Assembly (NCBI GenBank): GCA_964276515.1
Contig: OZ193909.1
Span: 4,960,001-5,024,000 of the forward strand
DNA length: 64,000 nt
Source: Gordius albopunctatus
Lineage: Eukaryota
Reading direction: 5' to 3'
Within the stretch, counting starts at the first letter, position 1. Every line of letters begins with the position of its first letter. Positions 14,137-15,262 of this stretch are shown piece after piece. Made by a program: the position numbers and the translations under genes. Under the pieces are notes generated by a model that was given only the letters and a program-made list of their open reading frames with translations, did no database searches and was not told where the DNA came from.

Positions 14137-15262
14137 TTAGTGGTAATTGTAAAACAACTTAGGTCTACGGATTCTGGACTTTACAAGTGCTTTCAGTTCT
14201 TCCATCAAATTAATCATATTTTCGAGCACTATATAATCACGAGTCAATACATCTATTTCAGATGTGGCATGAGCCTCAGCTAAGATTTGCCTAGAGGCGG
14301 GAGGCTCCTCTACAGAACCTGTAATGCTTTCTATAACACAGCCGAGTTGTTTAAATGGTTCAAGCAGCTTAGGAATATCAGAACTTGAATATTCTTTAGG
14401 CCTAGTCCATAAACCGACTACTGTTTTTACAGCCTCTACTGTTGGTTTAAATAACGGAATATCCTTGAAAATAAATTTAATAAATAAATAAATACTTTTG
14501 CCAAGTCCTTTATGGCTTTGCCAAAGAAGCCAAACATCTTTTTAACAGCTTTTTTAGGCGATATTTTGAAGCCCTTTTCCTTGATCCTTGTACTCTGTGT
14601 GCAAATATCATAAACACTTATTTTTTAAACACCGATTTCTTTCACAAATAAAAGCTTTAAATGGCGCAATTCAAAACAACCGTTTGGGCCAAATTAAGTT
14701 TACAAAACAAACAGACAAAACATATATGTATAATCGGGAAATGACAAAATTATTAGCAAGTTAAAAATAGGTCATAACAGATTAATCAAATATATTTAAT
14801 GTTATAACCAATTCCTTGAAGATCATCTTTCCAGTTGAAAGTCCCACAGTTAGAGGCTTGTCTAGGACTTTGACAAAATCTTTTATTGCCAGCCTACCCA
14901 TATCTGGACAATCTATAAAATCTCGCCGCATCATTTTTCTCTCTCCTTTTTTGTAAAAAGTAATTTTTTAAACATTTTGACTATCGTATATTTAAAAAAA
15001 TTTTCATAAACTTTACTATAGTAAATTAATCAACCTAACGACAGTTATTATCATTAGACAAATAACTAATCCTTTTGCCTTGAAAAATACATTACAACAA
15101 AAATAATAAAGTGCTCTTTAGAATTAGATGATCACTAAACTAAGATAAGTTAATAATCAAAAATTATAATAGGAGCAGTTGACTTTTACCTGGATCAACA
15201 CCTTGACTACAAACCCAAATTAAAGCAAAGAATAAAGTTGCAAAATATTTGAGAATAGGCAT
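14137..15262 (-). CDS. Unknown secreted helical protein, family copy C (4 exons, 211 aa)
   Basis: Exons 15262-15190, 14945-14809, 14594-14496, 14463-14137: MPILKYFATLFFALIWVCSQGVDP|GERKMMRRDFIDCPDMGRLAIKDFVKVLDKPLTVGLSTGKMIFKEL|STRIKEKGFKISPKKAVKKMFGFFGKAIKDLAK|DIPLFKPTVEAVKTVVGLWTRPKEYSSSDIPKLLEPFKQLGCVIESITG...SRQILAEAHATSEIDVLTRDYIVLENMINLMEELKALVKSRIRRPKLFYNYH*. Intron phases 1,0,0 as in copy A. Not present in the supplied ORF track. Confidence 0.9.

Follow-up and report, generated by a model that had tools for sequence, protein, structure and literature searches.

The third coding exon of a predicted gene, copy C (14496..14594, minus strand; 99 nt, phase 0-0), holds a real cationic amphipathic helix, which stands well above chance and is kept in both intact paralogs of a small family. 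This family, consisting of copies A and C and a fragment, B, in the 64-kb stretch of DNA that was analysed as a whole (the window), is predicted to encode secreted, helix-rich invertebrate proteins. As to the role of the helix, we tentatively favour, at a little under an even chance, that it serves as a conserved membrane-docking and possibly lytic element of the intact, predicted secreted protein, and is not set free or swapped as a peptide. This reading rests on sequence, namely on exon phases, charge, hydrophobic moment and a KK-x-F-x-F pattern, from which secretion, a cut at Arg-Arg, a disulfide and membrane binding are all inferred.

Charge, moment and conservation of the exon 3 helix

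Which features of exon 3 point to such a helix? The initial annotation had described a phase-0 exon, rich in lysine and poor in acidic residues, with apolar residues spaced as in an amphipathic helix, and all of this is borne out. The exon has AG/GT ends and phase 0 in both copies, and the quoted peptides are recovered on the minus strand, the plus strand encoding other peptides. In copy C, Lys and Arg number 11 against two Asp and Glu, and a helical-wheel check places all six named residues (V17, M20, F21, F24, I28 and L31) on one face, within about 100 degrees, with Lys and Gly opposite. A basic linker (codons 1-13) precedes the helix, which extends from K14 to A32 (14499..14555, minus strand), with a net charge of +6 over codons 14-33. 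Exon 3 of copy A (5014..5100, minus strand; 87 nt, phase 0-0) combines an acidic linker with a cationic amphipathic helix at 5014-5061 (net +5).

The best 18-mer of copy C reaches a hydrophobic moment (muH) of 0.67, matched or beaten by 21 of 5000 shuffles, and the best 11-mer of copy A one of 0.87, which 15 of 5000 shuffles reach; the 11-mer of copy C (309/5000) and the 18-mer of copy A (228/5000) are weaker. In both copies, the moment of exon 3 peaks at 100-105 degrees. None of the 1154 stop-free 33-mers sampled from the window combines a charge of at least +9 with the moment of copy C. With thresholds of muH at least 0.55 and charge at least +4, 5 of 16 18-mers pass in exon 3 of copy C and 3 of 12 in that of copy A, as against none of 1689 in 17 pieces of the neighbouring KIF3A, ATG4 and retroelement frames, a control set that is small, overlapping and drawn from intracellular proteins. 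The exon 3 helix is not unique: at the C-terminus of exon 4, the last helix also clears these charge and moment thresholds, with 1 of 91 windows in copy A and 3 of 82 in copy B. An AlphaFold model of copy C exon 3 alone, built on a two-row alignment, has coil over residues 1-12 and a helix over residues 13-32 (mean pLDDT 78, and 82-93 over residues 11-30), a result on an isolated exon that speaks to helix propensity and not to exposure. Moment, charge, controls and helix model thus agree on a predicted helix of the cationic amphipathic, lytic type, as had been proposed.

Between the intact copies, conservation in exon 3 is concentrated in the helix half, and the linker half reverses its charge. 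The helix half retains 5 of 16 residues (mean BLOSUM62 1.19), shows the KK-x-F-x-F pattern in both copies and carries +6 in C and +5 in A. In the first 14 columns, 2 of 13 residues are identical, and the net charge of the linker is +3 in C versus -3 in A.

Amphipathicity extends to all the helices predicted in the protein, as expected in any helical bundle; those of exon 2 are equally amphipathic (11-mers of 0.81 and 0.78) yet near neutral. The main rival to the membrane-docking reading builds on this, and we regard it as a realistic, if not a probable, explanation: the exon 3 helix would be an ordinary helix of a secreted bundle, its apolar face in the core and its basic face binding a polyanion or a partner protein, with no membrane activity. 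It accounts for exon 2 and exon 4 helices as amphipathic as that of exon 3, for the location of the helix inside the Cys-Cys span, and for an apolar pattern that is conserved while the linker drifts. Helminth defence molecules display the same pattern of cationic amphipathic secreted helices without lysis (PMC3708846); that such helices may be non-lytic counts against a role in membrane damage. What an ordinary bundle does not lead one to expect is that, in both paralogs, one internal helix is strongly cationic and Phe/Trp-rich, a combination absent from all 1689 control windows.

Gene plan and copies of the family

Exon 3 belongs to a predicted gene plan common to both intact copies, with four coding exons, 61-327 nt long, among which it is the sole symmetric internal one. 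Copy C, on the minus strand, is predicted to encode a signal peptide, a short propeptide with Arg-Arg and a helical mature chain of about 179 residues with two Cys. The signal peptide, called in copies A and C by a simple hydropathy scan that returned further-away candidates too, would reside in the hydrophobic core of coding exon 1 (15190..15262), which ends in phase 1. Exon 2 (14809..14945; 137 nt, phase 1-0) would contribute the short basic propeptide ending in Arg-Arg and then a neutral amphipathic helix, and holds the first Cys (14908-14910); Arg-Arg and Cys-Pro are invariant in exon 2 of copies A and C. Exon 3 is followed by a third intron of 32 nt (14464..14495) and by exon 4 (14137..14463), with 108 codons and a stop, a predicted helical fold, a basic C-terminal tail and the second Cys (14338-14340). 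The model of exon 4 is all-helical and, at a pLDDT of 49, unreliable.

Copy A follows this plan on the minus strand, with coding exon 1 at 6053..6113 (predicted signal peptide, phase 1), exon 2 at 5478..5614 (137 nt; a putative propeptide ending in Arg-Arg; first Cys at 5577-5579), exon 3 as given above and exon 4 at 4469..4795 (second Cys at 4670-4672). Counted from Arg-Arg, the mature chains comprise 179 (C) and 175 (A) residues with two Cys each, within whole proteins of about 200-210 residues. The lengths first reported for exon 3, 33 versus 29 codons, are confirmed, as is its location between conserved Cys, the only two of the mature chain flanking it. By exons 2, 3 and 4, the mature net charge amounts to 0, +9 and -1 in C and to 0, +2 and +1 in A; in copy C, the mature chain owes all of its net positive charge to exon 3. 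At position 4648, the first base of codon 50 (Pro) in copy A exon 4, DNA run X1 (described below) differs, a non-synonymous natural variant.

Copy B, on the plus strand, has a probable pseudo-exon, an exon-3-like stretch (6196..6276) that contains an in-frame stop and lacks a cationic helix, followed by an exon 4 (6318..6617; 300 nt) that is open for 99 codons and shares 42 identities with exon 4 of copy C and 34 with that of copy A. Hydropathy and profile searches found no exon 1 or 2 for copy B within the 64-kb window, and profile searches found no further family copies there. Copy B is probably a truncated pseudogene whose 5' part is missing. It is arranged head-to-head (6113-6617) with copy A, whose start codon is some 80 nt away, and perhaps sits inside a 5' non-coding intron of copy A. 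One contig of run X1 over 6175-6570 has about 20 extra letters. The 3' flanks of B and C (6679-6943 and 13016-13283) are 94% identical over 268 nt in inverted orientation, with exon 4 being 62% identical; read depth suggests a low copy number, and the flanks may have undergone conversion recently, or they may represent a low-copy mobile element or a conserved 3' element.

Upstream of coding exon 1 of copy C, a segment at 15406..15560 (minus strand) may be a promoter or a 5' non-coding exon, with a donor-like site at 15372. Stretches of 40-80 nt within it match contigs from other loci (four in X1, three in X2), which then continue into unlike sequence; the segment was not found upstream of copy A. 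Such matches may mark the promoters of additional, more diverged family members or may reflect a small repeat. A 36-nt contig of X1 matching 14583-14612 was too short to interpret.

The family is an orphan, with no relatives detected in any search, all of which used single exons as queries. Among longer proteins, exon 4 of copy C drew 152 candidates, none at E<=1, and among 1.84 billion representatives nothing at E<=0.001; in the word-indexed database, pieces of KIF3A and ATG4 gave no matches either, which makes blanks there weak evidence. For the family exons, PDB sequences returned rows at E 0.77-1.2 or nothing, Pfam and NCBIfam no family above cut-off, and the ESM Atlas low recognition and no usable match. 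Foldseek at E<=0.001 returned nothing for the low-confidence exon 4 model or for the exon 3 model. None of 136 pattern matches in metagenome contigs was confirmed. Two of 79 pattern matches in GTDB genomes (L001 and L002) passed, covering 25-35 query residues with E values relative to the candidates only, and were taken to be chance matches.

Possible membrane docking and alternative roles of the helix

How might the exon 3 helix reach and dock to a membrane? The signal peptide of exon 1 would send the protein to secretion, and the short propeptide would be cut off at the conserved Arg-Arg. The two Cys would form one disulfide, closing a loop of about 105 residues that contains the helix. On an anionic bilayer, the Lys face would bind head groups and the Phe/Trp face would insert, and the amphipathic helices encoded by exons 2 and 4, which are neutral, could then follow onto the bilayer. 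The variable first half of exon 3, basic in C and acidic in A, may tune or mask this membrane action.

As a lead, the residue spacing of copy C exon 3 may resemble that of the lytic segment of trialysin. In trialysin, a Lys-rich helix acts as part of a larger secreted protein, which offers a precedent: synthetic trialysin peptides fall short of the native protein by as much as 100-fold (PMC10144120). Trialysin and the redulysins of true bugs (PMC10144120; PMC8762107) are secreted precursors with a Lys-rich amphipathic helix within a larger protein of about 20 kDa. Both intact copies likewise have a candidate signal peptide (a hydrophobic phase-1 exon, by hydropathy scan) and a predicted Lys-rich amphipathic helix, and the acidic run of copy A lies just before the helix, as in the bug proteins (PMC10144120). 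In these, cleavage at DEER turns the helix into the N-terminus, and a region containing up to eight Cys comes after it, whereas here the helix is internal, lying between the only two Cys of a mature chain whose remainder is predicted to be helical. A DEER-like site before the helix is absent, with the linker of C being basic and the acidic run of A lacking DEER, and in place of a Cys-rich C-terminal region there is one Cys on each side of the helix. No trialysin match emerged from the protein, family and PDB-sequence searches, the libraries of which may not contain trialysins. By analogy, the family would work like trialysin and the redulysins without being a member of their group.

Other secreted precursors share less with the family. 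Cathelicidins have a four-exon gene encoding a secreted precursor, with a cationic segment on one exon, as here; unlike here, their highly variable peptide is encoded by exon 4, the terminal one, and is preceded by a conserved cathelin domain (exons 1-3) that contains two disulfides (PMC3932039). The present family has no Pfam match to such a domain and two Cys only, its exon 4 is the best conserved, and its cationic segment is on an internal exon that is not significantly more variable. Helminth defence molecules and Sm16 have four exons, a signal peptide in exon 1 and helical, amphipathic, cationic products (PMC7373315), a shared layout that is generic; they are described as trematode-specific and non-lytic (PMC7373315; PMC3708846), and Sm16, at about 117 residues, has its amphipathic helix in the C-terminal half, in contrast to proteins of about 200-210 residues (mature chains of 175-179) with an internal helix and a Cys pair. 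The micro-exon genes of schistosomes likewise encode secreted products from in-frame exons, some with membrane-binding amphipathic helices, but are divided into 10-20 exons, each 3-81 bp long, and their alternative splicing is documented (bioRxiv 10.1101/2023.06.21.545858), as opposed to one symmetric exon of 87-99 nt among four coding exons here.

A bolder version of the membrane-docking reading, which we consider unlikely, would make these proteins a novel family of helical cytolysins or antimicrobials that are secreted and co-regulated; the lytic helix, encoded by an exon of its own, would sit in a single-disulfide loop, a charge-switching linker would set its masking, and further diverged members would have in common the upstream element that recurs at other loci. 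If the helix is membrane-active, the family would be an apparently undescribed secreted one with a lytic-type helix placed mid-chain in a disulfide-closed helical protein, instead of terminally as in trialysins and cathelicidins. The repertoire of architectures among invertebrate proteins for defence or host interaction would thereby grow by one, with the two natural variants open to comparison. Should the helix simply pack in a bundle, the protein would be an ordinary, lineage-specific secreted one.

Quite improbable is a third possibility, that the protein is a non-lytic binder of lipid surfaces, of the type of exchangeable apolipoproteins or helminth defence molecules, the bundle of which opens on lipid, with exon 3 providing one of several lipid-binding helices. 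Such a binder would be consistent with a chain of amphipathic helices that has no transmembrane segment (the maximum 19-residue Kyte-Doolittle value is 1.39, below transmembrane hydrophobicity), and the four exons with a signal peptide in exon 1 recur in the Sm16/HDM gene layout (PMC7373315). However, no Pfam or NCBIfam family stands above cut-off for any exon, and a disulfide spanning most of the chain would presumably restrict opening.

The initial annotation had gone further still, suggesting that the protein may be a scaffold for a hypervariable exon with a swappable or released helix. We find this view of exon 3 as a swappable or released antimicrobial peptide little supported by the sequence, and consider it very unlikely that exon 3 is a cassette whose antimicrobial-type helix is skipped, exchanged or cut out free. 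Hypervariability is not supported: exon 3 identity between A and C (7/29, 24%) is at the level of exon 2 (11/45; exon 4, 33/104), and against exons 2 and 4 together (44/149) Fisher's test yields p=0.66 for identity and p=0.42 for positives, the 29 columns affording little power. The copies had also been called barely alignable. Exon 3 does align worst, with a global alignment z of 1.4 versus 10.1 and 14.9 for exons 2 and 4 and a mean BLOSUM62 of 0.86 versus 1.53 and 1.45, but this is mainly a matter of its first 14 columns, the helix half being homologous and aligning with KK-x-F-x-F. The fixed length ascribed to exons 2 and 4 is true of exon 2, with 137 nt, and nominal for exon 4, which measures 327 nt in A and C but aligns with eight gap columns, and 300 nt in B. 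Third-position identity between C and A (0.24 in exon 3, 0.27 in exon 2 and 0.36 in exon 4) is saturated throughout, and the duplication is therefore old. The length difference of exon 3 is probably due to small indels and a donor slide of 6 nt: the exon ends with TTG|GT in A and B, and in copy C the corresponding site reads TTG|GC, with a GT six bases later. The slide would explain two of the four extra codons, which vanish if the GC donor is used, leaving a 38-nt intron.

The symmetry of exon 3 means that skipping would keep the frame, yet 0-0 symmetry is weak evidence, phase 0 being the commonest intron phase. The decayed exon 3 of copy B beside an open exon 4 is one hint toward dispensability, but B looks truncated and is without exons 1 and 2 in the window. 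Alternative exon-3 copies are absent from the window, with one exon-3 version per gene. Contigs of the DNA runs X1 and X2 show zero differences in copy C (14030-15600) and no exon-3 variant in copy A, where the differences on contigs covering exon 3 fall outside the exon; both runs come from one study and behave as DNA, one of them may be the source of the window, and contigs drop rare variants, so that the agreement of the two is weak evidence. As for release, peptides of the cecropin and magainin type have a Lys-rich polar and a Phe/Trp-rich apolar face, are set free at 20-40 residues and have processing sites on both sides. The exon 3 helix has both faces in common with them, but no conserved flanking processing or amidation site: basic pairs occur at its start or inside it, and a flanking pair common to both copies is missing, which argues against its excision as a free peptide. 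On the side of release, the Arg and acidic run before the helix in copy A are loosely like the acidic sites of redulysins (PMC10144120).

Introns and genomic surroundings

That exon 3 is mis-predicted, in a boundary or as a whole, or that copy C is silent is highly improbable: an intron of 32 nt is rather short, copy C has a weak exon-2 donor (GTTATA) and other in-frame acceptors are present, but the intron before exon 4 has the same position in copies A, B and C, two residues ahead of an invariant Pro, candidate introns as short as 35-39 nt link conserved frames in KIF3A, ATG4 and PGAP1, and codon-position identity in exon 3 follows the order second, first, third (0.52, 0.34 and 0.24), an order partly built in by the protein-guided alignment.

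The window is AT-rich animal DNA (25-37% GC per 2-kb bin), in which the family neighbours PGAP1 (Pfam PF07819, E 1e-6), a KIF3A-type kinesin and ATG4 (Peptidase_C54). Beside introns of several kb, these genes contain very short candidate introns, at 33893-33927 (35 nt, KIF3A), 56866-56904 (39 nt, ATG4) and 2700-2734 (about 32-35 nt, PGAP1, where candidates span 32-45 nt), which may offer a hint as to the lineage. As the introns of all three genes join conserved frames, very short introns appear to be normal in this window.

Retroelement-like frames occur at 58-61 kb; those at 57976-61756 are gag-pol-like with several stops and presumably belong to a decayed Ty3/gypsy-type retroelement. Just 3' of copy C, a high-copy insertion (about 13285-14020) starts with TC and ends with CTAG, ends that we take to be Helitron-like, and has relatives at 24.3-24.9 kb and 62.5-63.3 kb. 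An intron of the kinesin gene contains a near-perfect inverted repeat (36323-37053) with 357-nt arms, 99% complementary and 17 nt apart, and an ATG4 exon (55910-56479) carries a long insertion before the stretch matched by Peptidase_C54.
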